A DNA stretch of 64,000 bases, taken from assembly GCA_010093605.1 (NCBI GenBank), contig MU004187.1, forward strand, positions 1 to 64,000, given 5' to 3'. The notes under the pieces are model-generated. The model was not told where the DNA came from. It did not search any database and was given only the letters and a program-made list of their open reading frames with translations. Source of the DNA: Lophium mytilinum. Lineage: Eukaryota. The position numbers and the translations under genes were made by a program. Positions 1 through 33,113 of this stretch are shown in pieces; positions within the stretch are counted from its first letter, which is position 1, and the number at the start of each line of letters is the position of its first letter.

Positions 1-95
1 CCTAACCCTAACCCTAACCCTAACCCTAACCCTAACCCTAACCCTAACCCTAACCCTAACCCTAACCCTAACCCTAACCCTAACCCTAACCCTAA
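1..95 (+). repeat. Telomeric repeat (CCCTAA)n, chromosome end
   Basis: About 16 perfect CCCTAA units from base 1, followed by variant GCCTAA/CCTAAG sequence. Confidence 0.98.
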
Positions 96-3000
96 GCCTA
101 AGCTCTATACTAGAAACTAATCTAGCACTATATAGCCTTGCTAAACTTAATAATATTCTTAATAATGCGTAGATAGCTACTTTTACCGCTAATATATTTA
201 CTATTAACCCTTCTAACTACTAAAAGTTCTTTAAGAAGATAAATTAACCTCTAATTACTAATAAAGAGATTAAGAAGTTACTTTCTAATTAGCTGCACTA
301 TATAGTAGACGCATAGAATCCTTATAAAGTAAATAAGCTTCTACCCTATTAATTAATAGACTATATAATTAACGTCCTCCCTAACTTAAAGCTACCTGCC
401 TGTAAAGTATATAGCCTTTTAAAAGATTAAGTAGCTATTATTAAAGCCTTTATTAATAAAATGCGCGTAAAAGATTTTATCTAACTAAGCTCCTTCTTAT
501 ATACTATACTAACTCTAGTTATAAAGAAACTAGAAGAAGGGCTCTATATTTATATTAATTACTATAGCCTTAATAAGATTAGTATTAAAAGCTATAATAT
601 ACTACTACTTATAAAGGATACTCTTATACTATTAGCTAAAGCTAAATACTATATAAAACTAGATATTATTAGCGCATTTAACGCCCTCTATATTAAAGAA
701 GGTAATAAATATAAAATAGCTTTTCTAACTTATTAGGGGCTATTTAAATTTATAGTCCTCCCGTTTAGCTTATATAATGCACCTAGTTTCTTTTAAGTAT
801 ATATTAATAATACCTTATAAAAATACCTTAATAATTTCTATACTATATATATAGATAATATCTTAATATATAGTAATATACTAGAGAAATATAAGGCGCA
901 CGTTCTTATAGTTATAATAAAACTTTATAATATAGGCCTATTTCTTAACATCTATAAATATAAATTTACTGTTAATAAAGTTAAATATCTTAGTATACTT
1001 ATTAGTATTAATAGAGTCTAAATAGATCTAGTAAAGGTCTAAATAGTACTAGACTAGCTAACGCTATAAAACCTTAAGAATGTATAGGCGTTTCTTAGTT
1101 TCTATAATTTCTATTAATACTTTATAGCTAACTACTCCGCGTTTATAGCTCTACTAATAACGCTAACCTTAGCCGTATAAAAAGGCTTTAAATTTCTATA
1201 GTTAGATAATAGTAATAAAGCTAAGGCTTTTTATAATATTAAGAAATATTTCTATATAGCTCTATAGCTTATACTATAGAACCCGGACTATAATACTTAG
1301 ATTAAGTATAATTCTTTAGATTATACTATAGCTACTATAATATTACAAGTCTAGCCTAATAGAACGCTTTACCTAGTCGCCTTTATATTATAATAGATAA
1401 TACTATAATAGATTAATTATACTATCTATAATAAGAAGCTTCTTACTATAGTACTTATATTTAAAGAATAGAGGCTAGAGCTTACTAAATAAGGCTAAGA
1501 GTGCAATAGCCCGGTTAATATTATCTTAAATTATAAAAACCTCTAGATATTTATAACCTCTAAACGGCTTAACTAATAATAAGCCTAATAGGCTAAATTT
1601 TTTACTAAGTTTAACTTTAAGATTACCTATAAGCTAGGCAAGTAAAATAAAAAACCTAACTTACTAACTTAATAACTAGGTAATAAACTAGCTCTAGGAG
1701 ATAACTAATATAAATATTAAGAGTAAGTTATACTAAAACTAAGTAACTATAAACTAGAAATATACTACGCTATTAAGCTTACGCATATTTTTACTAATAT
1801 ACTTAAATATACTTCTATTAAGCTAGTATAGATAATATATAACTTTAGTAAATTTAATTATTTAGAAGATAATAGTATCTAGCTAGTAGTTACGCGCATA
1901 TACTCTCTACCTACTATTCTAGATAAGCTAGATAATTCTAGACTATACATTTATATAAGAGGCCGCCCTAGAAAGATAACTAAAGCTCCTTAACTAGTAG
2001 CTATACTAGATAAGATAAATAACTCTAGCCCAGCTCGCCTATAAGAACGCCCTAAGAAGAATAAGATAACTCTAGTAGATAAGCTATATAATTCTACTAT
2101 TAAGAAACTACCTATAGATAATAAGCTAAATAATTTATCTAAAATAGTTCTTATAGGTAATTAAATTCTTTAAAGAATCTAAAAGTACTTTAAAGGTAAC
2201 CCTATTATAAAAGCTATTAAATACACTAAATACTGTAACTAATAATAACTACCTGCGCAGTTCTATTAAGATTATTATTTATAAATAGAACTAGGCAACT
2301 ATAAAGTTATTAATAACCTTCTCTATATCTATAAGTAGCTCTATATTCTAAATATTAAATAACTACGTACTTATATTATCTAATCTATATATAAACCTAA
2401 GCCCGCTAAATATACTAGAATAATATTAATCTATATATAACTATATAAGTACTATTACTAGCTATAAATAACCTCTTATATAGACTAATATATTAGCGCC
2501 TATCTAGCCTATAAAAGATCTAAGTACTTCTAAGAAGAAAAATAAGAACTACTCCGCCCGTTATCTATTCTAGATTAGTATTAGCACTATATTTCTATTA
2601 ACTTTATTACCCCTCTACCTATCTATAAATAATAGGGCTATAAACTTAAATATATTATAGTTATTATTAATTAGTTCTCTAAGAAGAGAAAGTTTATTAC
2701 TATAGATTCTATAAAAGCTAAGGACGTCGCCTAAGCATTTATTAAATAGATATAGTAAGAAGAAGAATACCTATACTTAATTATTTCTAATTAAGGCCCT
2801 TAATTTATTTCCCACTTCTAGAAGTAGCTATGCGCCCGAGTAGAAATAAAACTAAAACTATCTACTATATTCTACCTAGAGACTAATAGTTAAATGGAAA
2901 TTACTAATATAGCTCTTAAATAGTACCTACGCGCATATATTAACTATAAATAAGATAATTAGGCTAACCTTCTACCTATTACTAAGTTTAAAGCAAATTT

Positions 3001-4315
3001 AGATAAAATAACTACTAGCATCTCTCCTTTTATTATAATAAAAGGGTATAATCTACGCTCTAGTCTTAAACTAGCTAATAACTCTATAGTTAAAGGACTA
3101 TAGAAGCCTCTTAGAGAGAAGGCTAACGCGCTTACTAAGTAATTAAATAACCTCCGCCTCTTTCTCTATAATAAATTAATTTAGGTATAAGCTAGATAGG
3201 AAGAGTTTACTAACTATAAGCGGAAACTAGCTACTAAATTTAAAGTAGGTAACTAAGTTATATTAAATGCGCGCAATATTAAAACTAGGCGCCTAAATAA
3301 ATTACTAGACTATAAATAGCTTAGTCTATTTAAAGTTACTAGAGTTATTAATAATACTACCTATAAGCTATCTCTTCTATATACTATAAAGGGAGTATTT
3401 AACGCCTTCTATCTATAGCTACTTTATTACATTATGCATAAGCCGTTAGAAGGCTAGATTTAGAAAGAACCTAGACCCGTTAAAATTAATAAGGAAGGCT
3501 ATAAGTAATAGAACGTTAATAAAATTATTAACTTATATATTAATAAGGCTATGCTTAACCTAGCTATAAACTAAAAAGGCTTACTTTAGTATAAGATTCT
3601 TTATACTAGTTACCCTAAGTAGAACACTAATCCTTAATAGAAATCCTATACTAGTATTACTAATTACTGTAATATTATTATAGACTATTACTACGCCTAC
3701 CTAAAAGTAAAAGAACTCTATAAGTTTTTTTAGAAGCCTAAATATTAGAAGCTACTACTTACCCTAATTATAATAACGCTCTATAGATAACGCCTATCCC
3801 CTACCTTACTAACTTAACTAGCACCGGCCGGCTAAGCTATTACTAATTTATTAGATAACGCTGCACCGCATAGACTACGCAATAAAGCTTAGTAACGCAC
3901 GTAAGATTAACTATATTACTAACCTTATATTTAAGGCTTAGTAAGCGCCTATAACTTAGAAGAATAATAAGGCCCTTTATATAATATTAAGATTATTACT
4001 TAACTAATTAATTAAAGAAGGACTACTCTATAGTAAGTATATATACTAGAATAGAAAGGCTGCATATATATAGCTTTCTTTTAGAGGGGGGTAGTATTAT
4101 AGCTATAATATAACCCTTATTATAATATACTTCTATTATAAGTAATAGCGTTATATAGCCTCTATTACGTATTACTATTATATAACCTTACTTAGCGCTA
4201 GCCTTACCTACCTCTTAGCCGGCGCTCCGCGCCCTACTTTTTCTTCTTATAGCTACTTTATTATATACTTAATACTATCTAGTTTTCTATTATAATTCTA
4301 TATTATACTATAATA
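96..4315 (+). mobile_element. RIP-degenerated Ty3/gypsy (chromovirus-like) LTR retrotransposon, 5'-truncated at the telomere
   Basis: Reversing C>T/G>A changes recovers RT motifs (VKKPGGGLRICVDY ~520-565; CTAYMDDILIYS ~838-875), RNase H [13 protein letters not shown] (~1415-1452), integrase (DFIT ~2600; LSTxFHPETDGQ ~2858-2895) and a chromodomain-like tail (~3500-3700). Polypurine tract AGAGGGGGGTAG at 4083-4094. Confidence 0.9.
4095..4315 (+). repeat. 3' LTR of gypsy relic 1
   Basis: Starts immediately after the PPT with TATTAT (RIPed TGTyAC) and ends ATAATA (RIPed GTrACA). Last 35 nt are identical to the end of the second element's LTR. Confidence 0.7.
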
Positions 4316-4797
4316 GTAGAATTATTAAATATAAAAGAACTCTAAGATAACTTTTTATTTCTTTATCTAACTCTCTTCTCTTTCTTCTAATAATAAAAGA
4401 TAAGAGCTCTTTTACCTTAAGTAATTATTCTAATAATTTCTTGCGCTTTTAGAGTGCAGAAATCTACTATAAAGAGTGGAAGACCTAAGAGAAGTAAAAC
4501 TAAACCTAGAGAGTATAAGTTAAAGAAGTAAATTTACTATTTTCTATTAACTTTTTTAACTTTCCCTTTAATATAAACCCTTTTATATACTCTCTAATAT
4601 ACTAATCTTTTTTTAAGAAGGGTTAAGACGCTAGAAAGGATTTCCATAAATTTAGAAGTTTAATTGCAAATTCTAGGTAAATGCTATGCTAGAGAAATTC
4701 GCAATTTAGAAGTAAGTAAGTACTTATCTTTTAACCCTTTTTTACCTTTTATATTAGGCTAATTTATACTTTAATTAGAGCTTCTAACTGCTGCTAC

Positions 4798-5382
4798 NNN
4801 NNNNNNNNNNNNNNNNNNNNNNNNNNNNNNNNNNNNNNNNNNNNNNNNNNNNNNNNNNNNNNNNNNNNNNNNNNNNNNNNNNNNNNNNNNNNNNNNNNNN
4901 NNNNNNNNNNNNNNNNNNNNNNNNNNNNNNNNNNNNNNNNNNNNNNNNNNNNNNNNNNNNNNNNNNNNNNNNNNNNNNNNNNNNNNNNNNNNNNNNNNNN
5001 NNNNNNNNNNNNNNNNNNNNNNNNNNNNNNNNNNNNNNNNNNNNNNNNNNNNNNNNNNNNNNNNNNNNNNNNNNNNNNNNNNNNNNNNNNNNNNNNNNNN
5101 NNNNNNNNNNNNNNNNNNNNNNNNNNNNNNNNNNNNNNNNNNNNNNNNNNNNNNNNNNNNNNNNNNNNNNNNNNNNNNNNNNNNNNNNNNNNNNNNNNNN
5201 NNNNNNNNNNNNNNNNNNNNNNNNNNNNNNNNNNNNNNNNNNNNNNNNNNNNNNNNNNNNNNNNNNNNNNNNNNNNNNNNNNNNNNNNNNNNNNNNNNNN
5301 NNNNNNNNNNNNNNNNNNNNNNNNNNNNNNNNNNNNNNNNNNNNNNNNNNNNNNNNNNNNNNNNNNNNNNNNNNNNNNNNNN
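4798..5382. other. Assembly gap (585 N)
   Basis: Run of N. Confidence 1.
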
Positions 5383-8300
5383 ATATATATTACTAAGCTA
5401 GAATAGAAATTTAAAAGGGTTATTTTTATTATTACCTTTAAAGAGTAGTAAGCCTTAGTATTAAAGTATATATTATATTAGCTTTCTAAGATCTCTTATA
5501 TCTAGTTTAATACTATATATATACTATACTAGTAATTATATCTAAAATATACTAGTAAGGTACTATTACCTATATATAATCTTATAGAATAGATATTTAT
5601 TATAAATATTATATACTTACTATAGATACTTAATATATTCTAGATATATTCTAGAGATAATCTAGATATAATATATTATATATAGTAGTAGTTTAAAATA
5701 CTAGTATAAGGGGTAATTACTATAGTATCTACTATTAGCTATATTTAATACTTTCTAAGGTATCTATATATATATATATATTATTTTAGTAATATTATAT
5801 TTTTTATATTTTTTCTCTATTCTATACAAAATTCTACTATATTAGGAATTAAAAATAATTTAAAACGCTTTAGTTTAGCTATTATTTTGCTTTTAATTAG
5901 AAATCGCGGCGTTAAAATAAGGTTTTAGCACTAAAATAAGCTCTAATTTAACGTCCCTGCTATATAAAATAAGCTTACTAAAGCTACTTTAAGTAGCTTA
6001 GTAAAATATTTACTAAATCTTATAAAAAATTTTTTACTATAACTATGCTTTTACGCTCGTTAATATGCTTTTAAAATTGCTTAATTATTTTTAGTAATAG
6101 TTATTACTTTTAATTTTTAAGTAATCTAGTATATACTATATTAAGAAACTAAGTTAAATATTAGATATCTAATAGTTAAAATAGTACTAGTAGTAATAAT
6201 ATAGACACTTTATTATAAAATAGTACTTCTATATACTATAACTACTATAACTTACTATATTTATCTATTTTATTAGGTAAAGTATTAAACTATTTTTTTA
6301 AAGGGGTTTAATATATAATTATTATTAAGTAGTATAGCTTAGCTTCTATATAAATCTAAATAGACTATATTTACTTAGTATATCTAGTATTAGCCTAGCG
6401 CTATTATAGTATATACTAGTACTACTTAAAATATTTTAAGTATTATTAGTATATATAAAAATAAATATATATATTTAATATTTAAATAGCCTAACCCTTA
6501 TTAAATTAGCGTCCCTATATAAAATATACGCTAGTAATACTAAATTATATAGAGAACTTTTAGAAACTAACCCTTTTTATTACTACCGTTATTTACTACT
6601 ATTATTTACTACCGTTACCTAATAACACTAGTAATAATATTATTACTAGCTACCGTTATTATTATAGTTAGGCCCTAATAACGCGGAAGACTCCCCTTAG
6701 CTTAATTATAATAGTAAGCCTCTTCTACCTAAACTAGTTCTACTAGATAAGCTACTAGTATATAATATTTAATTTATCTCTATATATATCTATTCTATTA
6801 TAGCTAAATATAATAAAGATATAGTTATAACTATTAGTTTATAAGACTTTAAGTAACTAGATTAACTATAGAATATAGATAAGCAACATATATATAGATA
6901 ATAGGTAGTAAACCTAGTAGATATTACTACTAAGAACTACCGCTAGTTTAAAGAGAAAATAACTAAATTACTATATACTAAGGACTAGCTATAATAGAAG
7001 GTTTCTTTCTTTTTCTACTAGATTTTAGATATATTTAATTTATAAGTAGCTAATAAGCTACCTCTATATAGGCCTAGTATTAATTATACTATTAATTTTA
7101 AAGACCCTAATATAAAACTACTAGTCCTATATTAGTATAGCCTTTTCTATAATAAATTATAGGCTGTTAAAGCCTATATTAATAAAATACTAGGTAAAAG
7201 CTTTATCTATTTTAGTATATTACTCTTTATAGCGCTAGTTATTATTATCTATAAACTAGATAGAGGACTCCGCATCTATATTAACTACTACTTACTAAAT
7301 AATATTATAGTTAAGAATAGAAACGCCTCTTCTCTTTTATATAATATAATTATGCAACTTTATAAAGCTAAAATATACTCTATCTTTAATATTATTATAG
7401 CCTTTAATAACATCTATATTAAAGATAGTAATTAATCTAAAATAGCTTTCTATATCTAATATAGTATCTTTAAGTTTAATATTATACCTTTTAGCTTATA
7501 TAATGCTCCTAGAATATTCTAATTCTTTATTAATTCTATACTCTACCTATATCTAGATATCTACTATATAGCCTATATAGATAATATTCTTATTTATAGT
7601 AATAATAAAGAGAACTATAAGAGAAACTATATAAATATTCTTATAGCCCTGCATAATATAGAACTCTTTCTTAATATTAATAAATACTACTTTTTAGTTA
7701 AACGCGTTAAGTATCTTAGACTTATTATTATATCTAATAGTATAGAAATAGACCTAAATAAAGTTAGTACTATCTAAAACTAGAAAATACTATATAATAT
7801 TAAGAATATATAATTATTTCTTAGTTTCTATAACTTCTATTAGTAATTTATTACTAGTTATTTATAGATTACCGCCCTACTAACTAAGCTTACTAAAAAA
7901 ATAATAAAATAAGATAATTTTCCCTTACTTACTAATAGTCTAGTAGTATAAGCCTTTAAGAAGCTTAAAGCCTTATTTCTATCCGCACTAGTTCTAGCCT
8001 ACTTTAATCTAGATCTAGACTATATACTAGAGACTAATACCTTAGATTATATTATAGCCGCAATCTTCTCTTAATAAGGCCTAGATAGAATTCTCCGCCC
8101 TATTACCTTTCTATTTAAGAAGATAACTCTAGCAGAATATAACTATAAAATATATAATAAAGAGTTACTTACTATTATCCGCGCCTTTAAAGAATAGCGC
8201 CCTAAACTTACTAGTATTATTAACTCTATACTTATATAAATAGACTATAAGAACCTAGAATACTTTATATCTTTTAAATAGTTAAATTACTAATAAGCCC

Positions 8301-10713
8301 GTTAGGCTAAGTATCTTTCTTAATTTAACTTTATCCTAAACTAGCAACTAGATAAGTAGTTAACTAAGTCTAATAGCCTTACTTATAGGCCTAGTAATAT
8401 TCTAGATAATTTAAATAACTCTAGAACTATATATTAAATATAGATAGTATTAAAAAAAAGAAACCTACTAGAAGAAATATACTAAGCCCTATAGCTTACT
8501 AGTATACTTCTTAATAAATAGAAAGTATCTATTATTTAGCTTACTAAGCTAATATATAAAGTTATAGAATAGTACTCTATAAATATTCTATATATTATTC
8601 TAGTAGCTAATAGAATAAGAGAAATAAAGAAGTGCTTAACTAAGGTTATAGCTAATTATAGTAAGTTAGATAAAGATCTATAGAACGCTACCTCTAATAT
8701 TATTATACCTACTATACCTTAGCCTACGCCCATAGCTACTAATAATCCACCTAGCGAAGAAGCGCTAAAAGTATCTAAACCTAGTAATAAGTTAGATAAG
8801 AACTTACTAAAGAACTATACTAATAATACTACTATCTAGTAGATTAATTAAGTTTATATAGAGAATAATATCCTCTAGCATATTATACACGCTAAGGAAA
8901 CTAGTAAATAATAGATTCTACTTAAACTTATTTAAAAGTAAGGTATTAAGATTAAGCTTAGTAACTATAAAATCTATAAAAATAGACTATTTATTAATAG
9001 TTATCTATATATTCTATATAATATAAAGCTCTATATATAATTAATTAAAAAAGCCTATAACTCTCTTTCTAGAGGCTATACTAGAAGAAACTCCCTCTAT
9101 TATTACCTCTTATTCTAGTACTGCTAGCTAGAAATTATAAACTCTATTACTATATATATTAATACCTACCTTATATATAGATGTATAAAGGTCTATAAGA
9201 ATAGTAAATATAGCTTACTTAAGCTACTCCCTATTCTAAATTAATACTAGATAGATATCTCTATTAATTTTATTACTAAGCTGCCCCCTTATACTATTAA
9301 GGGCCGCATATACTAATATAATAGTAGTTATTAATTAACTTTCTAAAAAATATAAATTTATTTCTCTAGACTCTATAGAGCTAGAAGACGTTATATAGGC
9401 CTTTATTAATTAGATTTAGTATAAAGAAGGCTATCTAGACTATATTATATTTAACTATAGTATATAGTTTATATTCTTCTTTTAGAAGTACCTATATAAA
9501 TATATAGAAACGCATCTAAAGCTATCTACTATAGCCTATCTAGAAACTAATAGATAGACTAAAATTATTAACGCAGGTTTAAAGTAGTACCTGCGCGTAT
9601 ATATCTATTACCTATAAGATAACTAGATAAACTTAGTTATATTTACTAAATTTAAGGCTAATACTAATATTAATTAGTCTACTAGTATATTACTATTTAA
9701 GGCTACTAAAGGCTATATACTTTATAGTAGCTTAGAGCTATTATTATAAGAAGTTATTATTCTAGGCCCTAAATAATATAGAGTTAACGCAGCTAAGAAA
9801 CTTATTACCTATATTTATAATCTATAAGAGTTTCTTAAAGAAGAGCTCTATTAGAATTAATCTAAGATAAAGAAACTAGCTAATTAAAATTGGCTACCTA
9901 CCCCTAAATTTAAGGTTAATAATATAGTTATACTTAATACTAAGAATATCTATACTATATAGCTAAGTAAGTCTCTTAACTATAAGAATCTTAGTCTATT
10001 TTATATAATACGGGTTATTAATAATATAGCCTATAAGCTAGAACTTTCTAAGTCTATAAAAGAAATCTTTCTAGTATTCTATCTATAGTTACTCTATTAA
10101 ATTAATAAAAATCCTTCCCTTCTAGAATAATATCTAGAACCCCTACCTGCACTTAAGATAGAAGATAATAGCTTTATAGGGGAATACTATATTAATAAAA
10201 TACTAGACTCCCACTTTAATAGCTAACGCCTTAATTTCTATATAGGTAAGAAGCCTTACTTAATCTATAAGATAGCCTAGACTAGATATAATAATACCCG
10301 GCCTAAATAGAAGCTCTATTAGAATACTAATAGCTATAATAAACTCCTTATAGAATACTATATAAAGTATAGCCTTAAGCTAGAATTTTATTTAATATTT
10401 AGTATATCTAAATAGAAGGTTGCGAAAATAATAGGTAAGAGTATAAGTACTACTATAGTAATAGTAGATCTATAGAATATTCTTAGTACTAGCCTAAGTA
10501 AGTATAAATAGTAATTTTATTAGGTAGCTAAGTTATCTTATAAGAAGGCTATTCTATATAGGTAACCTAAAGTAGAACTCTAATAGATAGAAGCTAATAA
10601 TAGACCTTAGATTAATTTATATAGTCTACTAGTAGCGCTTAAGAATAACTATAAGTATAAATATAAGAGTAAATATAATAGAAATAATAAATATAGTATA
10701 ACTATAGATAATA

Positions 10714-11560
10714 GAGGCTAGTACTAGTACCCCCCCTAATTAGTATAAGTATACCCCCTTTTTAGTATATATATACCCCCCATCTTATCTAGTCTTCTAA
10801 TTAGCCCGGAGGGGTCCTCTAAGGCCTCTAATTTACTTACTTTAGTTGCTTACTAACTCTAAATATAGCGTAGCTATAAATTATAACCTTATTCTTATTC
10901 TTATCTATAGAGGACTATATTCTATAGTATTAAAATAGCGCTTATTTTAAGCCTTAGCTAGCTCTTTAGCCTTAGCTAGCTCCTTAGCCTTAGGTAGCGC
11001 TAGTACTACTTTCTTATAAGAAGCCGCTGCTTTCTAATTAGAAGCTTTAATATTAGATAGTATTATATAATTAGTTTATAGAGGGGTTAATAGATTAGAA
11101 TAGCTAGAGAAGCGTAGTAGTAATATAGGGGGGCTAGGTTTAATATAGAGAGGCTATAATAAGGTAAGAATTTAACTATTTTAGTATACTTATAGGTATA
11201 TAGATATATAGATAGTAATATAATAGCCTATATATACTATAGAAAATAGAAAGTATATATAGTAAATAGGTATACTATATAGCCTTACTATAAGTAGCCT
11301 TATATATAGTCTTATATATAGCTTATATATAGCCTTATCTATAGCCTTATCTATAGCCTTACGCGCAGCTAAGTATAGGCTATTAGAAATAGTAAGAATA
11401 TATAATAAAATAGAAAGGCTATATAGCCTTACTATAAAGTACTAGAGTAATATTCTAAGCCCTCCGGGCTAATTAGAAGACTAGATAAGATAGAGGGTAT
11501 ATATACACTAAAAAGGGGGTATACTTATACTAATTAGAAGGGGTACTAGTACTAGCCCTC
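10714..11560. mobile_element. Non-autonomous Mutator-like (MULE) DNA element nested in the 3' region of gypsy relic 2
   Basis: ~100-bp terminal inverted repeats (10714-10813 vs 11460-11560; termini GAGG...CCTC) flanked by an exact 9-bp direct repeat TAGATAATA (10705-10713 and 11561-11569). Confidence 0.85.
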
Positions 11561-11696
11561 TAGATAATAGTAAGTATATAAATAGAAGAGCTATATAAGC
11601 GGCTTAATATAGATAAAATAGAAAGAATAGAATAGATAGAGGAGCTATAGTATATTATAAGCCTTATAGAACTTTAGCTTTTAAAGGGGGGGGTAG

Positions 11697-11952
11697 TATT
11701 ATAGTATAAACCTAGAATTATAATAATTATATACTAAGGTTATATATAGCCCCTTATATAACCTAAGTAAGATACTAGTCTAAGGCGCTAGGCTATAGCA
11801 TATATACTAGCCTTAAACTATAACCTCTTAAGAGCTTCTAGCTCTCTCTCTTCTTCTTAGCTTAGATTTTTATAATAGTTAATACACCTTATTACTTATA
11901 TTATACTAGCCCTCTATAGTTTTCTATTATAATTCTATATTATACTATAATA
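11697..11952 (+). repeat. 3' LTR of gypsy relic 2
   Basis: Follows the PPT; TATTAT...ATAATA termini; shares its 35-nt end with the LTR at 4095-4315. Confidence 0.7.
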
Positions 11953-12639
11953 ATAATTCTACTTTTTATTTAATATATCTATATACTTTATAGCCTATAA
12001 TATATATTTATACTTATCTATCTTACTATAGTAGCTTTAGTAACTATCTACTATAGTACTTTTTTATTTTTTTTAGATACCTCTAGATTATCTAAGTAAA
12101 TAGTAATCTTTTTAGTATCTTTCTCTATAAGTTTTTATAGCTTTTTTCTTATTTTAAAAGTATTTTAATTAGTAAATATATAATATTAATTTAACTATAG
12201 AATATAGAGTTAGTATACTTTAGAAATACTAGTAATAGTATAGATATTAGCTAAATTTAGCTAATAATTTAAATATTAGGTAGTTACTTTAGTAGTAAAT
12301 ATAGCTAATTAAGATAAAGTAAAAAAAATCTTTAAACCTTTAACTTTATAAACTAATTCTAGTAGAAAACTAAAGTACTTTACTTAGAATTTATATATAG
12401 CTAGATTTTTCTAAAGGTATACTATATCTTATACTTTAAATAAGAGTATAAGTATTTCTATACTCTTCTATTATATATTAATATTCTCTAACTTTAGTAT
12501 ATATATACCTCTATTATCTAATCTTTTAATTAGCTAGAATAGCTTAAACTTTTATTTAGAGCTCTAGTAGCTAGCTACTTAGCTTAAAGAAGAGTATTAT
12601 AGAATAGTAGTAGTACTATAAAAGGTAGTATAGTAGTCT

Positions 12640-13159
12640 AAAAGCGCCTATTCTAAGCCTTAGCCTTAGCCTTAGCTTACTTCTTAGCCTTAGGCAGCGC
12701 TAGCGCAGCTTTCTTATAAAGAGCTCTAATATTAGATAGTATTATATAAGAAGAATAGCTAGTAGAGTATAGTAGTAATATAGGGGAGGCTAGATTTAAT
12801 ATAGAGAGGCTATAATAAGATAAGAATTTAACTATTTTAGTATACTTATAGATATATAAATATATAAATAGTAATATAATAGCCTATATATACTATAGAA
12901 AATAGAAAGTATATATAGTAAAATAGATATACTATATAGCCTTATATATAGCCTTATATATAGCCTTATATATAGATTATATATATAGCCTTATTTATAG
13001 CCTTAATAGGCTACTAGAAATAGTAAGAATATATAATAAAATAGTAGTAATTTAAGCCCTCTAAACTAATTAAAAGATTAAATAAAAGAAGGGTATATAT
13101 CTACTAATATTAAAGGGTATTAATATATAATAGAAGGGTATAGAAATACTTATACCCTT
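12640..13159. mobile_element. Second, diverged copy of the right half of the MULE-like element
   Basis: 12640-13045 aligns as a direct repeat to ~10935-11415. 13052-13110 is a transition-diverged version of the right TIR (AAGCCCTC...CTAATTA...GGGTATATAT). Confidence 0.75.
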
Positions 13160-13577
13160 AAATAAGTAGAATTAGTTAATAAATAGTAGTATTATAAGTA
13201 TTATTTTAATTTAGGGGGTATTATTTTAGTAGGGTGCGCACGGTGCCGCACTCTGCCTTATTCCGATCCCTTATTTCGGCGCCGAAGAGCGAGGCTAGCG
13301 CTGAGCCTAGTTATGTGACGGTAATTACGTGCTAGAGGGCACGTCACGCCGTTGCGTGTGTTAGGAACTTTTCGCGATAGAAGTCGCGTTACGGCCAGAC
13401 AGTAACATGTAAGGCAATTGCCGCCTGGTTGCGGTCCTTGGGCGGCTTCAGCTGAATTTCAGCCGCACCTCTTGGCAGGAGTCGTAAATCTACAAAAGGC
13501 GCAGACTGCCTCACCCTGCACCAATCTTCTCCTTTACCGGGTACGGCGTATAAAGTGCATTGAATCCGATCGTCAAA

Positions 13578-16387
13578 ATGAGGTTTTTCATGTTTGGACC
13601 CAGCTATGATGCCTGGGCATTGGGCAACGAGTTGTGGACCGCATGGAGCGATAATCTCGATCCTAGACTCAAGAAGCTTTTTGAAGGCGCCGAGCTCAGC
13701 GGCGACACCATTGATTGGGTTTCGACCGCCACCGATGGCAAGATCTACATGCCTTTCTTTCCGAAGGTTCTGGGTTATGGTGGTCTTTACGTGAACAAAT
13801 CTAACGGTGCAACTTCCGGTGAGCTCCCTCCAGAACGACAAGATTTCAGTCACAGCTTACCAGTTCCAGTTTACAGAACTCTGGATCCCACCCTTTTAGC
13901 GGATACGCAACCTGTTAGATTGAACAACTGGGGTTTGCAGACTCGAACTGTCGAACATATCAGCTTCTCCTCCGGTGGAGGCTGGGTTGTGGCATACAGC
14001 GACGGTACACTGCGAGTCTCCTCTACCGGAACTTTCCCAGACGCGTTTCACAACAGCCTCAAGGGGCTCTTGAAAACAAGAGGATGTATGGATCCGCAGG
14101 AGACCACGATCAAATATGTCTTCTTTGGAGCGGGCGATACTCTCGTGGTCCAGATGAAGAATGGGCCGGTCAAGATGTTCGGAATCCCATCTGGTCTGGA
14201 AGATGCTATTGTTGAGGCTAATGGGCGGGAGCAAATGCTTACAAAGAGCACGGTTCTCTGCCCGTGGGATTCACGCTTCTACTTTGCACATTTCCAGTCT
14301 TGGAACCATTGGTCCATGCCATCAGAGCATTATGCATGGGACATATGGCCGAACGGTCGGCTTTCCGACATTGTCCTGCGAGAAGTACTAGAGTGGCAAG
14401 TACCGGCCTCCTTTGACGCAGTAGTGCCATTCAATCAGCCTCCGCCGCCTCTTGGACAATCGAACGGTTTAACACCGACCGCCGCTTCCCAGCCAAAGCC
14501 AACCGATGTGCCCAAATCCAAACCACCCACGGCCGCTCCGCCAAAACCGACTGTACCGGCCGCAAAGGATAGTAACCCATTCAGAAACGCAGCCACCAAG
14601 AACAACCCAACACTGAATCCCAGATCTGTTTTCTCTAAGGAGGAAATTCAAGATTTTGAAAACGTATTCCGCCAGGGGGAGACCGATGGTTCGGGGAAAA
14701 TGAACGCTGACAACGCAGTCCAGTTTCTTTCCAGTTGTGCTGAGAGTATTGGAGGGGTAACCAGCAACATGCTTGGACAACTATGGGATAAGGTGGACAA
14801 GGACAATAGTGGTGATCTGGATTTCGAGGAGTTCCTGCATGCAATGGCACTACTGGGGAACCTAACAGATGGAAGAACCTTGGACGACGACATCATGCCT
14901 TCTGAAGCCTTTAAAACTGAAGAGAACCTAACCAACCTGCCCATAGATCCACCTCCTGCCTACAGTAGCTCCATACCTTCAACGACCGACGACGCCACGA
15001 GCCGTGCCCCTGTGGCCACCCGAGAGGTCAACAACATCCTGATCTGCGATATCTGCTGCTCTACAATCACCGATCTGGCTTACTCCTGCAACCAATGCAA
15101 CGACTGGGACATGTGCCAAAGATGCCACGACAGCGGCAAAATCTGTCCCGATGCGCACGCTCTTACCCTCACCAAGATCCAGCTGGGAGCCGACCTAGAG
15201 GACGCGCTCAGTGGCATGAACCTCAATGGCAAAAAACAGGGCCAAACGAATCCCAAGAATTGCGGTGGGAAAAATGGCGACAGTTCCAACCGAGAAAACG
15301 ACGATGCGCAGCTCAAGGACTCTCTTATGGCGTCCGTCATCACAGAGAAGCCAAACGTCAGATGGGACGATGTCGCTGGTCTGGAAGCCGCGAAACAGGA
15401 ACTTCGCAGTGCAGCGGTATTGCCAATCAAATTCCCCGAGCTGTTCAGCGGCCAGCGCAAGCAAAGGCGTGGAATGTTGTTGTACGGGCCACCTGGGACG
15501 GGCAAGAGTTTCCTAGCCAAGGCCATCGCCACGGAGGTGGAGTCGACGCTCTTCAGCATCTCGGCCAGCGATGTGACGTCTAAGTGGCTCGGTGACAGCG
15601 AAAGGTAAGCTTGCGGTCCAGCAGCAGCGAGACAGTTGACGCCCACTAACTCCTTCCTCAGACTCATCAAGCAACTGTTCAAGCTCGCCCGCGAAAAAAA
15701 GCCGTCCATTATCTTCATCGACGAAATCGACGCACTTTGCGGCTCCCGCGACGCACCGGGCGCAAACCCGCTGACGCTGGGCCTCAAGACAGAGTTGCTC
15801 GTGCAGATGGACGGCGTGGGCAATGACAACGAGGGCGTGCTGCTGCTCGGCGCGACGAACCTGCCGTGGACGCTGGATCCCGCGGTGCGGCGCCGCTTCC
15901 AGCGCAAGATCCACATTCCGCTGCCGGACGAGAAGGCGCGCCGGCAGCTGTTCAAGATCAGCGCGGAGAAGATGGAGGTTCCGCTGGGCAAGACGGACTA
16001 CATTGAGCTGGCGAGCATGACGGATGGGTTTTCAGGGAGCGATATTAGCAATGCGTTGCAGGATGCGCTTGATGTGCCGATCAAGAGAGTGCAAAATGCG
16101 GGCTTTTACCGGAAGGTGAGTGGTGTGAAGCCCGCCAGACGTTTTTCCGCTAACGACTGTACCAGGTGCAAGAGGAAGGAAAGGGACTGTTCATGCCATG
16201 CGAGGAGAGCGACGGAGGTGCAATCAAAATGACATTCATCGATGTGCCGAGAGGAATGCTCAAAGCGCCAGTGGTTCGAAGAGAGGACATATTTGCAGTT
16301 CTCCGGGACGTTAAGGCTTCGGTAAGCCAGGAGGAGATCAAGAAGTGCATGGAATGGACTGAGCAATTCGGATTAGAAGGCGCCTAA
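13578..16387 (+). CDS. Chimeric Vps4-family AAA+ ATPase (N-terminal repeat domain + EH domain + ZZ zinc finger + Vps4 AAA/Vps4_C); introns 15605-15661 and 16116-16165
   Basis: [14 protein letters not shown], Walker A GPPGTGKS, pore loop SKWLG, Walker [23 protein letters not shown] and C-terminal [10 protein letters not shown] typical of Vps4. EF-hand pair with [21 protein letters not shown]; CxxC..CxxCxDWDMCxxC..H ZZ pattern. GT-AG introns with branch sites restore the frame. Confidence 0.9.
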
Positions 16388-16791
16388 AGGTTAAAGATAA
16401 TATTCGTCCTAAGATTATTTAATTAGCTTCTTTTAAGTATTACACTAGGCTTCTAGTATATGCAAGAAGCAGAACAAGCTTGACTGACAGTCAGCGGGCG
16501 ACCGGAGAGCGGATTTGGAATCTCAGGATCAATTGCAGACATCCCTCGGGGGGGGCCTGTTCCTAAAGATTATCCATCGGCATTACGATCGCTCTTAGGC
16601 TTAGTCTAGGAGGCGAGTAACAACAAGTTAGGCAAACCTTCTACTCTTAGCACAGCCCAATTCCCAAACCGCAATCTTACGATGACACTTTGATGTTCCA
16701 GCACAGACTCCCAAACACCACTTTCCCTACTGCGTCTCTCAGCAACTTCGCCCATTCTTTGCCCGTAGCCATAACCTTAATATCTACTTTC

Positions 16792-20324: not shown

Positions 20325-21483
20325 ATGCACTCCTTTGCTAAAGCAAGCGTCTTTCTGAGTGTCTGCAGCGCCCTGGTTGGCGCTGCCCCAGTCCCAACCC
20401 CAGCTTCAATCGAGGAGCGAGCTACCACTTGCACATTCACCTCAGCTGCTTCCGCTTCCGCTAGCAAGAAGTCCTGCACCAACATCGTCCTCAGCGGCAT
20501 CACCGTGCCAGCCGGCAAAACTTTGGATCTTACTGGCCTCAAAACGGGGACAACCGTATGTCCAAGTCAATCTATGGGAATGAGTCAACTAATCTCCATG
20601 ACAGGTCACTTTCGAAGGAACCACGACTTTTGGCTATGAAGAATGGAAAGGGCCATTGATCAGCGTTTCCGGAACCGACATCACGGTGAAAGGCGCGTCT
20701 GGCCATGTCATCGACGGCAACGGTGCTAAGTGGTGGGATGGCAAAGGAAGCAACAGCGGGAAGACCAAGCCCAAGTTCTTCTACGCTCACTCCCTCACCG
20801 ACTCTGTCATCACCGGCTTGAACGTCCTGAACACTCCGGTGCAAGGTTTCAGCATTGACGGAGCGTCCAACCTTACCCTCTCATCCATCACCATCGATAA
20901 CTCTGCTGGTGATTCCGAAGGCCACAATACCGACGCCTTCGATGTCGGCGATTCCGACACTGTCACCATCACCGGCGCTGTCGTCAAGAACCAAGACGAC
21001 TGCCTTGCCATCAATTCCGGCACCAACATCATCTTCGAGAACGGTTCATGCTCTGGTGGCCACGGCCTCTCCATTGGATCCGTGGGCGGCCGCTCCGACA
21101 ACACCGTCAAAGGCGTTACGATCAAGAACTCCAGCATCTCCAACTCCCAAAACGGCGTCCGCATCAAGACTATCTCTGGTGACACTGGTTCCGTCTCCGA
21201 CATCACCTACTCGGGCATCACGCTCTCTGGAATCACCAAGTACGGTATCGTCATCGAGCAAGACTATGAAAACGGCAGCCCAACTGGCACCCCAACCAGC
21301 GGTGTCCCCATCACCGGCCTTACTCTCACCGACGTCAAGGGAACCGTCTCCAGCAGTGCTACTGACATCTACGTCCTTTGCGCTTCTGGCGCCTGCTCTG
21401 ACTGGACCTGGTCCGGCGTCAGCGTCACTGGTGGCAAGAAGAGCTCTGCGTGCGAGCATGTCCCATCTGGTGCTTCTTGCTAG
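20325..21483 (+). CDS. Secreted endopolygalacturonase, GH28 (intron 20556-20604)
   Basis: Signal peptide and ER-ending propeptide; catalytic motifs NTD, QDD, GHG and RIKT; C-terminal cysteines. Confidence 0.97.
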
Positions 21484-21914: not shown

Positions 21915-23733
21915 TCAAGCTACTGCAAATCGGCTCCTCAGCCTCAATGTCTTACCAAAAGAGTAGATCACATATATGCCTGCGCAGCAACCCGCACACA
22001 GTCCCCCTAGAAGACTAACCCCACCAGCAACACCCATGCCCAGAAACATTGGGCGCGAGTATAGAATTGCGGCCGCCGCAAACACACTCCTCGCGAAACC
22101 GTTGGCGGCGAACAGCGACCCGGCGTAGCGCGGGTAGGTGAAAGGCAAGTAGATGAACATGCATTGCGTGATGATGAAGACGCCAAACATACTAATCGCA
22201 ATGCCGACAAGGGAGATTATGAAGTGAAGGGATGGGCGGGATGTCCATGCTGCGGTGGTCAGCTTTGCATAAGAATGAGGTGAGTATTGGCGCACCGTAG
22301 ATGAAGAGGCCTGCAGGAATGAAGAAGGTCGCAATAAGTCCAGGCCGAAGTCTCGCTTCCGGTGGGATCTCGTGGCCTTCTGCTTCCGCTTTTGCGAAGG
22401 TCGGGTCGCTGATCCAGTAGAAATATGCACAGTATGCCGCGACCGCAACGAAAAGCCCCGCAAGCACAGCTAGAAACGCAAGGCCAAGTTGACTGAGATC
22501 GAAACCATAGATATCTTGATACACAAGTGGAAACGATTCGAAGAAGGAGTAGTATATCGCATAAATCAGTGCTGTGTAGAAGGTTGTGAAGAGCATAGCT
22601 GGGTCTTTAATGTTGATTTCCCACGGCTTGATGAGCGCCTGGGTGAGGATCTCGCGCGTCGCCATCTTCTCTTGGTGTATTTCGGACGTAGAACGCAGGT
22701 CGGCACGGCCAGTGAGGGTACGTAGGCGCCGAGCGCGTTGGAGAAGAATCTTGTCTGAGGAGGTTTCGGGAAGGGCGAGGAACATGAGGATGAAGACGGG
22801 GCCAGTGAACCAGAGGAGTTCCCAGGAGCTCCAGCGCCAGTTTTTGTATTGAACTGCGAAGCCGCCAACGAGAGGACCCAGCGCCTAGATGTGTCGAGTT
22901 AGTTGGTAGGCCCTGATGTAGTAGAGCAAAGAAGCGTTGCACATTGGCATTACTTCTAAAAAAGAAAAACTTACGGGCGCCAATGTCGCTCCACCACCCC
23001 ACAACGCGATTACATACGGCATCTCCCGCCCACCGTAGAAGTCCCCATAGCTAGCGCCCCCAGTTGCCAAGCATGGAGACCCAAAGAAGCCAAGAAGGAA
23101 ACGCAGCACCAGCAGTCCGGCAAAGTTGTCCACCAAGCTCGTCGGGACGCATAACACCACAAACAAAGCGTATGTAATCACGTATGGTGGATTTCGTCCG
23201 ATTGCTGGAACCTCTGAGAGTGGCGAAAATAGCATTGGCCCTACGCCGTATCCAATTACATACAACGAGAGACCTAATGCGGCGACAACTTCGCTGACGC
23301 CGTAGAGTGAGACGATAGCTGGTTCGCTGGCCGTATAGAGAGAAGAACCAATGTAGACGGACAATGTGTAGATGAGAATAAGGAATGAAGTCCATATCTT
23401 CTTCGCGGAGGACCAGTTGTGGGGGTTGGCAGGGTCGGTGTCGGTGTACCATGTTACGAGAGTGATGCCGTCGGAAGAACGATGAGCACAGGTCGTTTCG
23501 TCACTTTCCTGGTCCTCTGAAACATCCTTTGAATGCCGGGGATTGAATGTTCGATGACTTGCTTCCTGTCCAGGGTCTGCGCCGTAGCCTGATATGTCGA
23601 CGAATAGATTTGATTGAGTGTGCAACGCTGGGAGTATGAAGTCTTTGGTGTCTTCGGGGTAGGCGGCGACAGATCCACGCGTAACAAAGCGAAGGACCTG
23701 CCCTACGGCAGCGTCCCTGAAAATATCGCGCAT
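21915..23733 (-). CDS. MFS multidrug transporter, DHA1 family, 3 exons
   Basis: MRDIFRDAAVGQVLR start; WYTDTDPANPHNWS; GPMLFSPLSEVPAIGR; LRFLLGFFGSP; PPEARL. Confidence 0.93.
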
Positions 23734-24084
23734 GATGGACTATTAGGACTTGTGTAGGATTCTTGAAGAAGAGGAATAAATCGAGTGTGTGTGATATTCA
23801 AAGCTCCCCTGGGATGCAGCAGAAGACTTTGGCCTTATACATGTGCAGACCTTATAATTCGGGGTCTTGTACAGTTATCTTTCTATTGAGGTCCGTGTCA
23901 GCGCGCAAAGCTAATCCACTCTGTGAGGAGGCAAGGATGGGAGGTCGTGGCGTGGAAACTCGTCTGCTGAATTGGGTTAGCTTTGCGCGCACTCATGAAA
24001 CGAACATCACCAATGTTCCCGAATGCGTCTTGAGCTGGGCACTTCTACGAGCATTCGATCTAATTATGAAGGCCGTTGCACATC

Positions 24085-26508: not shown

Positions 26509-28161
26509 CTACCCTTCAACCCAGTTGCCGTGCAAGCCAGCCCTTAGACGTACAGGCAAATCAATAACTGCTTGCGGTTTCTCGAAGTCTCTAGTATCTA
26601 CAATATGCAACTCGCTGCCCATGGTAGCATAGTTATTGACGAGGGCCATGACCCAGCCGTCGCCTTCAGCTGTGTCTGCACCCTTCCTTGGAATGAAGAC
26701 GGGTTCCTGGACCAAATGTGTTCGGCCTGGGAAGTACTTGTAAATTTTCATACATTTGTAGTCAAGATGGCCCAAAGCGTTGTAAATCGGGTGTCCACCG
26801 CCCATTCTGGGCGCGATTGTGCCAAAGTCAGTTCCCAAATGCGGATCCATTAGATCGAAGAATGTATGCATATGTTTTGTTCCTAAGAATCTTTCGTCAA
26901 TGCGAGGAAACTCGCAGTCCTCTTTGCCGATGATTTGGGGCTCTGGGAGGTTGAGATCGGAAGAATGAGGATCGAAAGTGAAGCGGATGAGCTTTGCTGC
27001 GATGGTCTCGGGTTTGGGCGCATTGCCGTCGGCATCTGGCCACCAGAAGAATACATTCCTATCTGTGAGTGGCAGATCAAATACTAGGTTGCCCGATTCG
27101 TCTTCATATGCATTGACAGTATGACCTGGGAAAGCATTTGGCGCGCGAAACCATTTGACATCGGAGCCAGATGCACCACGGCGTGGGAGGACTCCGAGAT
27201 AGAATGGGCCGTTGGAGTCCCATTGCCAGTGCTCGCCGCCTTTCTTCATGCGTTCAAGGTCGCATGTTTGTGGGATGATAGGAAATAACACCTAAGTTGA
27301 TTAGTTCGTTTCTTTCAAGACATTCATTGGGACACGGGGACTTACCCAGTGCTTCGTAATGGCGAAATCATGAATCATTGCTACCACAGGTGCAACAAGC
27401 CAAACGGTTTCGGTGAGCTTTCCAGTAGAATCGACAGTAAAATAACACACATCCGGAGTACCATCACCTTTGGCTTCATAGCCGAAACAAAGAAGCTCGT
27501 CGCCATCGAGTTTTGGGTGAGCTGTAAAGGTCAAGCAGGGCAATTGGCCGTCAAAATCTTCTAAGCCGATGGTTTCAAGAGTCTCTGGGTCGAGAGAATA
27601 CGGAGGAGAATCTTCTTTGCAGGCAAGCAAACGGCCATTGAAGAACAAGACATTGGTATTAGCAGTGCTTCGAACCTTGAACTCCACAGCGTCGGTAAAC
27701 TTGTTGCGGTACTTGCCTATGAGGGAACTGTAAGAAAGCCTTCATGAAAGTGGATGGATATGGAAGCATCGTACCAAGCAAGGATCGCTTCGCTTCTCTT
27801 TCTTTAACAAACTTTTCGGTCCTAACGTATCTCTGCTTGAAATGGCAATGGCCGTCTTTGATTCGGAACGCGCTGATGTTACCGTCTCCATTGAACCACT
27901 ACATTGACTAAATCAGCCAATGGTGTTAAGCAAGGTGACGTCGCAACAGATTTTACGTACCGGGTCATTCTCGATGAATGGGGGCAGCTGCGGATCTGGC
28001 ATGACCCTGTAGAATGTGCCGTCGATTTCGAAAGGTATCTCACCACGGACTTCGAGATTATGGACCTCCCCTTCGAAACGACATGGCTTCATGAAGCCCG
28101 AGAATTGGGGGAGTTCGGGGAACGCGCTCCTGGGCTTTGTTGATCTGAAGTGGCCCGCCAT
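26509..28161 (-). CDS. Carotenoid-oxygenase-family stilbene (resveratrol/lignostilbene) cleavage dioxygenase, CAO-1/Rco1-like
   Basis: RFEGEV.NLEV.GEIP..I.GTFYRVMP, WFNGDG, FKVRSTANTN; four Fe-His motifs FTAHPK, MIHDF, FPGHTVN and GLHGNW; closely follows the recalled Neurospora CAO-1 sequence. Confidence 0.92.
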
Positions 28162-32000: not shown

Positions 32001-33113
32001 CTAAGACACTAACGATTCCAAATCTTGGCCGTTGTATCTGTAAAATCCAAGGGATTTGAGCATAGGCTCATCATGAACTCTGTATAGGTACACTGTCTCT
32101 CCATCACCCGCATGGTGTTGGTACTCATGCCACGACGGAATGCAGAAAGTGTCGTACTTCTTCCAGCTGAACTCTCTTCCATCGATCGTGGTTGTTCCGG
32201 AACCCTCAATCACGTGGAAGATTGACGAAGCCGTCTCTTGAATCTTCGGGGTTGACTTTCCTGGGGAGATGCGAGTAGCAGAAGTACCTAATGTGCGGCT
32301 TACTGGACTTTGTTAGTGTCAATCAAAGTAAGGCAACCATAAGTCTATGACGTACTTTCAGATCCATCTGCCTTGTAGTAGCCCTTCGTCGTACTCTCGC
32401 CGCTGCCAGCGTCGAGCTGGACCTTCATGCGGGTCCATGGGAAGACAAGTGGAGAAGCTGAAGTATCCACGTTTTTGGCCGGATACCGTGGGTCGGCATA
32501 ATGCTCTACAAAATGCACCGGGAAGTGTACAAAGCTTGGGAGATCCAAGCCATCGAGCCAAATCATGGGTCCAGAACCATCTTTGCCATGATCGTGCCAG
32601 TTCCAGGTCGGGGTCAAGATGACATCGCCGCGTTGCATCTGGATGCGCCGACCGTGCACAGCAGTGAAACCACCATTACCCTCGATGATGAAGCGACAGG
32701 CAAAGGCAGTGTGGCGATGAGCTGGCGCCGTCTCGTTGGGCATGACTAGTTGAAGCCCAGCGTAAATGGTATCGGTCGTATAAGGCGCTTCTGCGCATGT
32801 ATGAGCCTTCTGATATTTAGAGAAGGGGCTTCTTACCTCGAGAGGGATTTACAAGCATCAATACACGTCGTTCCGCTTGTTTCTCAGTGATAAGTTCGCC
32901 AGCTTGCAGCAGACTCGGTCGAATCTTCTCATATTCCCACACGTGGGGGTGGCATTTTGGATTCGGTAGAGGAGGATTAAGGCGTGCCATCTGTGCCCAT
33001 AGTGGCTTCGTGTGATAGTCTTCAGCAGCCTTCAGCAGGTTCTTCGTCAGTTGTTCTCGATCAACATGCGTCGAAATGCCATTTTGGCCACTAATAGTTG
33101 CAGTGGAGCTCAT
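32001..33113 (-). CDS. Gentisate 1,2-dioxygenase-like bicupin, 3 exons
   Basis: [60 protein letters not shown]. Confidence 0.92.

Follow-up and report, generated by a model that had tools for sequence, protein, structure and literature searches.

What a Vps4-type motor might do without the domain that normally directs it is the question raised by a gene near one end of contig MU004187.1 of Lophium mytilinum (GCA_010093605.1), of which positions 1 to 64,000 of the forward strand were analysed (64,000 nucleotides, hereafter the window). In its usual form, Vps4 is recruited to ESCRT-III by way of an MIT domain. The original prediction, made from the nucleotide letters, described the product of this gene as a Vps4 paralog in which the MIT domain is absent and an NPF motif, an EH domain, a PPPAY motif and a ZZ finger stand ahead of the AAA domain and the Vps4_C helix; each of the named features was confirmed in place on the basis of sequence and Pfam comparisons. 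As set out below, the gene forms a single transcribed unit, its motor groups with a separate clade of fungal Vps4-like proteins, and its N-terminal modules are, to differing extents, shared with relatives in other filamentous fungi.

The gene (13578-16387, plus strand) comprises four coding exons, which on splicing give a frame of 883 codons with a single terminal stop and thus a protein of 883 amino acids (aa). Contigs of four public sequencing runs (X3, X4, X11 and X19) were aligned to positions 13400-16500. The X3 contig (3100 nt) is 100 % identical to the window and all three GT..AG introns are gone from it, as are the same three introns from the X4 contig (2819 nt), which belongs to a different organism and departs from the window at 179 letters. 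The first two joints are also found in the metatranscriptome X11 and the third in X19. Both X11 and X19 are recorded as RNA runs, while the RNA status of X3 and X4 is guessed, the lack of introns in these two contigs being as expected of transcripts. Single spliced contigs reach from 5' of the ATG to past the stop codon, and the frame stays open from the ZZ finger into the AAA cassette. The gene is real and expressed, and the RNA across the domain junctions, for which a check had been proposed, belongs to one transcript and not to two genes. The N-terminal modules had been taken to lie in one continuous open reading frame (ORF) up to the AAA domain; this frame (13578-15608) is indeed open over 676 codons in unspliced form, but it includes an in-frame intron of 51 nt that had been missed. 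This intron removes 17 codons (residues 81-97 of the unspliced ORF) and its GT..AG borders are preserved in an orthologue at locus L001. The two remaining introns interrupt the part of the gene running from the AAA domain to the C-terminus, with intron 2 falling within the AAA cassette itself. Within the X4 contig, one base is out and one is in three bases further on at window positions 14652-14655, by which one codon is changed and the frame is left intact.

The AAA domain was matched in Pfam at 46.9 bits in the unspliced ORF and at 75.3 bits in the next exon, and was followed by AAA_lid_3 (33.9 bits) and Vps4_C (PF09336; 66.2 bits against a cut-off of 21.3). Among proteins of solved structure, the best relatives of exon 3 are Vps4 (170 bits) and VCP-like ATPases (140 bits). 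Walker A, Walker B and the arginine fingers are all present, and sensor 1 (the GATN stretch), the beta-domain and the C-terminus could be aligned with canonical Vps4. The protein ends in FGLEGA, in keeping with the complete Vps4 cassette, with beta-domain and C-terminal FGxEG, that had been predicted. The Trp of pore loop 1 is retained, with Met replaced by Leu (KWLGD; KWMGE or KWMGESE in canonical proteins). Just before Walker A, members of the paralog family all depart from the canonical sequence. The catalytic motifs of the predicted AAA+ motor are thus intact. The Pfam scan yielded no match to the MIT family (PF04212) at E<=1; the canonical Vps4 rows do carry PF04212.

A tree was constructed with IQ-TREE from the region between the AAA domain and the C-terminus (45 rows; 323 of 731 columns; unrooted). 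Relative to a preceding quick tree, it was extended by the canonical proteins of Monosporascus ibericus, Thermocarpiscus, Mollisia, Mollisiaceae, Neurospora, Xylaria, Diaporthe, Botrytis and Golovinomyces, and six rows were dropped on account of an aberrant C-terminus (P0025), a very long branch (P0028) or truncation (P0088, P0098, P0112 and P0136). Twenty-four family rows, that of the window protein included, fall on one side of a branch supported at 100/99. The eighteen canonical Pezizomycotina Vps4 rows are grouped at 99/96, and three other Vps4-like rows, one of them from a rotifer, lie on the canonical side. The family stem (0.51) and its end branches (up to 0.7) are long relative to those of canonical Vps4 (0.01-0.13), and exon 3 of the window gene shares 62-72 % identity with the family and 57-59 % with canonical Vps4. 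The predicted protein is thus a MIT-less paralog within the Vps4 clade, as had been claimed, and not an orthologue of canonical fungal Vps4. A MIT-bearing Vps4, for which a check elsewhere in the genome had been proposed, was found in the sequences of relatives, namely M. ibericus (P0203), Thermocarpiscus, Mollisia scopiformis and Mollisiaceae sp., the last three of which also hold a family member. For the family (P0042) and canonical (P0269) proteins of M. scopiformis the longest contig is 1,327,714 bases in both cases, and the two may share a scaffold. Branching inside the family is for the most part in line with taxonomy. The 312 aa protein of Monosporascus sp. CRB-8-3 (P0045) is placed beside Podospora didyma (100/94), among the Sordariales and outside the subclade of the window protein, which suggests either a pair of ancient paralogs or a transfer.

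A word-based search with the 676 aa ORF identified eighteen proteins at E<=0.001, twelve of which are close relatives (40-89 % identity). The only named one among these is P0002, a hypothetical protein of 611 aa from Monosporascus sp. 5C6A. Its model skips residues 74 to approximately 150 and stops shortly after the site of the second intron, and it looks mis-annotated or truncated when compared to the RNA-supported model. Exhaustive HMMER searches with the N-terminal domain (N-domain) alone recovered fifty-six matching 50 %-identity clusters (E<=1e-3; thirty-seven at E<=1e-10). Four of these were already known and eighteen were shorter than 291 aa; the remaining thirty-four were scanned for domains. 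An EH domain was found in twenty-five, an AAA domain in eighteen, either or both in twenty-nine, SH3 in four and ZZ in two, and five gave no match; no unrelated family was observed in the thirty-four, only EH, SH3, ZZ and AAA-type domains. The order N-domain, EH and AAA persists in relatives which are just 21-30 % identical in the N-domain, and this domain appears to be confined to the present family of Vps4 paralogs.

When longer proteins were searched with exon 3, at least fourteen of the best 120 of 1867 matches combined EH with AAA, two of these also having ZZ. Among these listed matches, the EH and AAA combination occurs in Neonectria, Cosmosporella, Cylindrodendrum, Stylonectria, Madurella, Chaetomium, Thermocarpiscus, Mollisiaceae and Cudoniella, with Sporothrix eucalyptigena and Acephala macrosclerotiorum added by cluster look-ups. 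The members with EH, AAA and Vps4_C belong to the Sordariomycetes and Leotiomycetes and the short forms add one Dothideomycete, again among the matches listed, so that the family appears to be restricted to the Pezizomycotina, in which it occurs in at least three classes. Its members are named in the databases as hypothetical proteins, as EF-hand domain-containing proteins or, wrongly, as Vps4. Full-length models (786-955 aa) exist in fourteen other records. Short forms (287-457 aa) without the N-terminal modules are spread across the family clade (P0025, P0026, P0033, P0042, P0045-P0047, P0052, P0055 and P0061) and represent either true short proteins or models without their upstream exons. 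The architecture had been put forward as one without a known description; literature searches likewise found none, and the main text of the Monosporascus genome paper (PMC7407469) contains no mention of Vps4, AAA, EF-hand, telomer or RIP, but the protein is not a one-off.

A motif scan of fifteen full-length members, including the window protein, revealed that an NPF upstream of the AAA domain occurs in the window protein, P0027, P0031 and P0038, and a PPxY only in the window protein, P0027 and P0165. The NPF and PPxY motifs, which had been counted as part of the architecture, are therefore present here but are features of its subclade only and not of the family as a whole. In P0154 an SH3 domain separates the N-domain from EH, and in P0144 and P0170 an SH3 domain precedes EH. 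The core of the family thus consists of the private beta-rich domain, EH and the Vps4 motor, with ZZ, SH3, NPF and PPxY as variable additions.

The N-terminal domain of approximately 290 aa had been reported to be without a family, and residues 1-300 indeed match no Pfam family at E<=1. An AlphaFold2 (AF2) model of residues 1-291, based on fifty-five aligned sequences, is nearly all beta, with a mean local confidence (pLDDT) of 88 and a predicted TM-score (pTM) of 0.85; residues 1-60 are modelled at pLDDT 90-95. As it is modelled as all-beta, this domain would not be the three-helix bundle of a MIT domain. A divergent MIT domain at the N-terminus was considered and ruled out by the lack of a Pfam match together with the all-beta model, and the claim that MIT is absent was thus upheld. 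Foldseek comparison of the N-domain against the PDB produced no match at E<=1e-3, and the best Z-score from an exhaustive structural aligner (6.6) is within the range common for unrelated models. The structural matches listed are mostly beta-propellers (such as TolB, WD40, RCC1 and GH43) or beta folds resembling them. In the ESM Atlas, unnamed Ascomycota clusters were found along with a weak tectonin/propeller match (0.78), which serves as a lead only. The modelled N-domain is propeller-like, without a clear solved relative.

In the unspliced ORF the EH domain (PF12763) spans residues 353-434, with a score of 37.5 bits (cut-off 22), and includes an EF-hand_1 match at residues 401-425 (31.4 against 25.4 bits). 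When the middle region (residues 322-545, same numbering) was modelled with AF2, pLDDT was approximately 90 for the EH part and 92 for the zinc finger. The EH part matches the second EH domain of AtEH1/Pan1 (Z 10.9; root-mean-square deviation (rmsd) 2.1 over 84 residues), ITSN1 EH1 (Z 10.7), Eps15 EH1 (Z 10.2) and EHD1 (Z 9.8), and its best row in Foldseek is likewise an EH domain (E 7.7e-4). EH domains bind NPF motifs, and PPxY motifs bind WW domains. L399 and W403 are invariant in the alignment of relatives and are presumably the positions of the NPF pocket, which is suggestive only. Among the twelve close relatives, NPF is kept in ten, with P0010 and P0013 being without that stretch, and PPAY is also kept in ten, having been lost in P0007 and lying in a missing stretch in P0013. 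The linkers around these motifs are poorly conserved (mean identity 47-59 %; minima 6-27 %), and the sequence of P0007 also diverges downstream of its ZZ finger. In the AF2 model, pLDDT falls to approximately 35-50 over NPF and PPPAY, so that docking is unreadable from the model. A complex prediction for the NPF linker (residues 306-345) and the EH domain (346-445), run with no alignment and no folded controls, scored 0.26 against a mark of 0.34 and is evidence neither way.

The predicted ZZ finger fared less uniformly. Its Pfam score (PF00569, residues 489-519 of the unspliced ORF; 17.8 bits, E 0.003) is under the cut-off of 21.4, but the Cys/His ligands and a fold and sequence like those of p62 bear it out. 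The ZZ domains of relatives exceed the Pfam cut-off (P0158, 24.9 bits; P0189, 29.2 bits). The zinc ligands C169, C172, C183, C186, C192, C195 and H206 are nearly invariant. In fold, the finger matches the p62 ZZ domain with a Z-score of 7.3, 49 of 51 residues being superposed at an rmsd of 1.4 A, and the ZZ domain of Nbr1 with a Z-score of 6.9. By sequence, the best solved domain is that of Schizosaccharomyces pombe Nbr1 (E 2.6e-5), with human p62 at 6.8e-5 and weaker, to 4e-4. The Asp of the 'CDIC' stretch and both Asp residues of 'DWD' align over p62 D129, D147 and D149, each of which is reported in PMC6197226 to be needed to bind N-terminal arginine. With these three acidic pocket residues kept, the ZZ pocket would bind a free N-terminus.

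The orthologue at L001 is 88 % identical; it shares all three introns and aligns without gaps or stop codons. The ratio of non-synonymous to synonymous substitution (dN/dS; Nei-Gojobori) between this gene and that of the window is 0.30 overall (dS 0.15). By region it amounts to 0.056 for the AAA domain and lid, 0.14 for the beta-domain and C-terminus, 0.21 for ZZ, 0.40 for the N-domain, 0.53 for EH and 0.45-0.69 for the linkers; as one pair and short regions are compared, the regional values are rough. On this estimate the gene is under purifying selection.

The gene had further been described as subtelomeric, and the window does begin with telomere repeats, followed by AT-rich sequence which, as read from the letters, continues to approximately 13.2 kb and is without long ORFs (Table 1). 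These approximately 13 kb behind the telomere look like repeats degraded by repeat-induced point mutation (RIP). The Vps4-paralog gene is the first gene in DNA of normal GC content, 13.5 kb from the telomere. At L001, which originates from a metagenome and begins at base 1 of its own contig, the orthologue sits on a normal-GC island between AT-rich blocks. No telomere repeats were present at six related loci, L001 included. A 61 % identical relative (L003) sits in ordinary gene-dense DNA beside GH72, acyl-CoA thioesterase and SDR genes, with no conserved neighbours between this locus and the window, and subtelomeric placement is therefore not a property of the family. The neighbours within the window are typical accessory or niche genes.

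Table 1. Coordinates of the features of the Vps4-paralog gene and of its surroundings in the window.
Feature	Position	Strand	Basis or remark
Telomere repeat (CCCTAA)n	1..101	.	14 matches to three-unit pattern against 0 expected; sequence read
AT-rich gene-poor stretch, telomere to gene	102..13230	.	17-28 % GC to 12 kb, against ~50 % further on
Coding exon 1	13578..13818	+	Start ATG; residues 1-80, first part of N-domain; contig joints in X3, X4, X11
N-domain, all-beta, propeller-like, no Pfam family	13578..14429	+	AF2, Pfam, HMMER, structure search
Intron 1, 51 nt, in frame	13819..13869	+	GTGAGC..TTCCAG; joint in X3, X4, X11
Coding exon 2	13870..15604	+	Rest of N-domain, linkers, NPF, EH, PPPAY, ZZ, first part of AAA
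Pro-rich linker	14430..14567	+	Sequence; SH3 in this place in some relatives
NPF	14574..14582	+	~20 residues upstream of EH domain
EH domain	14634..14879	+	Pfam, fold search; canonical EF-hand loop 14778-14852
PPPAY (PPxY)	14949..14963	+	Within poorly conserved linker
ZZ-type zinc finger, p62/Nbr1 kind	15045..15158	+	Cys/His ligands, fold, sequence match
AAA+ cassette with lid	15303..16115	+	Pfam, solved relatives, alignment; intron 2 inside
Walker A GPPGTGKS	15486-15509	+	Motif scan, alignment
Pore loop 1 KWLGD	15582-15596	+	Motif scan, alignment
Intron 2, 57 nt	15605..15661	+	Joint in X3, X4, X11
Coding exon 3	15662..16115	+	Contig joints, spliced frame
Walker B IIFIDEID	15708-15731	+	Motif scan, alignment
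Arginine fingers RRRF	15888-15899	+	Motif scan, alignment
Intron 3, 50 nt	16116..16165	+	Joint in X3, X4, X19
Coding exon 4	16166..16387	+	Beta-domain and Vps4_C helix; ends ..FGLEGA, stop TAA
GH28 polygalacturonase	20602-21480	+	Neighbour gene
MFS transporter	22195-23739	-	Neighbour gene
RPE65-type carotenoid oxygenase	26512-27291	-	Neighbour gene
Aldehyde dehydrogenase	28801-29361	-	Neighbour gene
Cupin	32348-32848	-	Neighbour gene

The protein is proposed to be a hexameric Vps4-like translocase, redirected from ESCRT-III to partners read by its EH, ZZ and N-domains. It would assemble into a Vps4-like hexamer and thread polypeptides through its pore, with clients or recruiting partners being chosen by these three modules where canonical Vps4 relies on MIT-MIM contacts to ESCRT-III. 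Endocytic proteins with NPF motifs would be bound by the EH domain, a free N-terminus by the ZZ pocket and a further ligand by the N-domain. The PPxY motif could let a Rsp5/Nedd4 ligase dock, and the protein's own NPF may bind a neighbouring EH domain and thereby help autoinhibition or self-assembly. Most likely, the protein would act in remodelling or extraction of proteins during endocytic or ubiquitin-dependent vacuolar sorting, as an accessory activity beside canonical Vps4. Redirection from ESCRT-III to EH and ZZ partners is probable; the hexameric translocase directed by all three modules has about an even chance of being correct. The fullest version is tentative and on the doubtful side: that the Pezizomycotina possess a second, ESCRT-III-independent threading machine derived from Vps4, which would obtain its clients via an N-terminus-reading ZZ finger, EH and a private propeller-like domain, and would extract or unfold them at endocytic sites or on the ubiquitin/Rsp5 route to the vacuole. 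Several observations weigh against this proposal. Its substrates are named by analogy with domain families, and the neighbouring genes carry no hint of function. Pore loop 2 departs from the canonical Vps4 rows, all of which have EGESEASRRIKTE, and is different throughout the paralog family, and the second residue of pore loop 1 is variable among its members (L, I, H, M, T, V, S, F and Y); given these differences, threading may differ from that by Vps4. At the positions of p62 N132 and R139 the ZZ finger has Cys and Ala, so that its ligand need not be N-terminal arginine. Troponin C, an EF-hand protein, ties with EH domains in the fold comparison (Z 10.5). Neither NPF nor PPxY is present in ten of the fourteen other full-length members, and the endocytic flavour may therefore hold only for the subclade of the window protein. 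Furthermore, evolution of the N-terminal modules is several times as fast as that of the motor, which fits relaxed constraint too.

Retention of all the elements of Vps4 oligomerisation (AAA interfaces, RRRF fingers, beta-domain and Vps4_C), the considerable identity of exon 3 to canonical Vps4 and the co-occurrence of both proteins in three species would also suit an adaptor subunit, which would co-assemble with canonical Vps4 (and Vta1) and bring ESCRT-III disassembly to sites marked by NPF, Rsp5 or a ligand of the N-domain. This is unlikely, as the family clade is long-stemmed and fast-evolving relative to canonical Vps4, and pore loop 2 and the residues before Walker A differ family-wide. 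The location of the gene has a bearing on a different reading, in which an accessory gene for conflict or non-self recognition would sense foreign or altered protein with its variable N-terminal modules and execute the response with its motor. The gene is subtelomeric and AT-flanked, and the L001 orthologue is AT-flanked too; the taxonomic spread is patchy, members differ in the combination of their middle modules (SH3, one ZZ or two, NPF and PPxY), members from the genus Monosporascus fall in two subclades, and dN/dS is 0.4-0.7 in the N-terminal modules as opposed to 0.06 in the motor. However, the Pfam scan found no fungal incompatibility or NLR domain, no region has a dN/dS above 1, the relative at L003 occupies ordinary gene-dense DNA and the family tree largely follows taxonomy, and such a role is decidedly unlikely. 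The degraded AT-rich chromosome end which the gene adjoins, the weaker constraint on its N-terminal modules and the divergence of P0007, including its loss of PPxY, could be expected of a decaying or neutral VPS4 duplicate that had acquired unrelated exons and no specific function. With an intact frame of 883 codons that is correctly spliced in the RNA of two organisms, low dN/dS in the motor and overall, and a domain order kept in relatives of very low N-domain identity, this explanation is very improbable and has been largely refuted. Finally, the short forms annotated in several fungi might suggest that two adjacent genes, for an EH/ZZ protein and a short MIT-less Vps4, had been read as one. 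As one transcript covers all domains this objection falls; the uninterrupted frame between ZZ and AAA and the fourteen other full-length records also speak against it, and at this locus it is refuted, with hardly any probability left to it.

The fusion of a Vps4 motor to EH, ZZ, SH3 and a private beta-rich domain represents a Vps4 engine redeployed in a conserved and expressed fungal lineage, and a natural experiment in how an AAA+ translocase may change clients through swapped N-terminal adaptors. None of the classic model fungi has a member, and this may be the reason that the family has not been studied. The RNA-supported model can be used to correct mis-annotated records ('Vps4', 'EF-hand protein' and truncated hypothetical proteins). 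Should the ESCRT-III-independent translocase proposed above prove true, filamentous fungi would possess an additional, new branch of AAA+ quality control.

Compared with known systems, the window protein shares with canonical Vps4/SKD1 a single AAA cassette with lid, the beta-domain insertion and the C-terminal Vps4_C helix, as well as Walker A and B, sensor 1, the RRRF fingers and the Trp of pore loop 1. It is distinguished by the absence of MIT, in place of which approximately 560 aa with the beta-rich domain, EH and ZZ are found, by pore loop 2 and the second residue of pore loop 1, and by its position in a separate, faster-evolving clade. The EH domain resembles those of Eps15, intersectin, Pan1 and EHD1 in passing the Pfam EH threshold, in its four-helix EF-hand pair with a canonical Ca loop (Z 9.7-10.9) and in its invariant Leu and Trp, but is a single EH fused to an AAA+ motor, with an NPF of its own 20 residues upstream. 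Similarly, the ZZ finger is like those of p62/SQSTM1 and S. pombe Nbr1 in fold, sequence, zinc ligands and the equivalents of D129, D147 and D149, but lacks the PB1, UBA or LIR context and is sub-threshold in Pfam. The closest counterparts belong to the unnamed EH(+ZZ/SH3)-AAA-Vps4_C family, as exemplified by proteins of Neonectria ditissima (853 aa, 'Vps4'), Cosmosporella (877 aa), Madurella fahalii (786 aa, 'EF-hand domain-containing protein'), S. eucalyptigena (955 aa) and Cudoniella (786 aa). Unlike the window protein, Nectriaceae members have two tandem ZZ-like fingers and are mostly without NPF or PPxY (Cosmosporella has NPF), those of the Sordariales and Leotiomycetes are without ZZ in the motif scan, and some relatives have SH3 where the window protein has its Pro-rich linker. 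A common N-domain, EH and the AAA and Vps4_C motor, within one clade, are nevertheless what these proteins and the window protein share.

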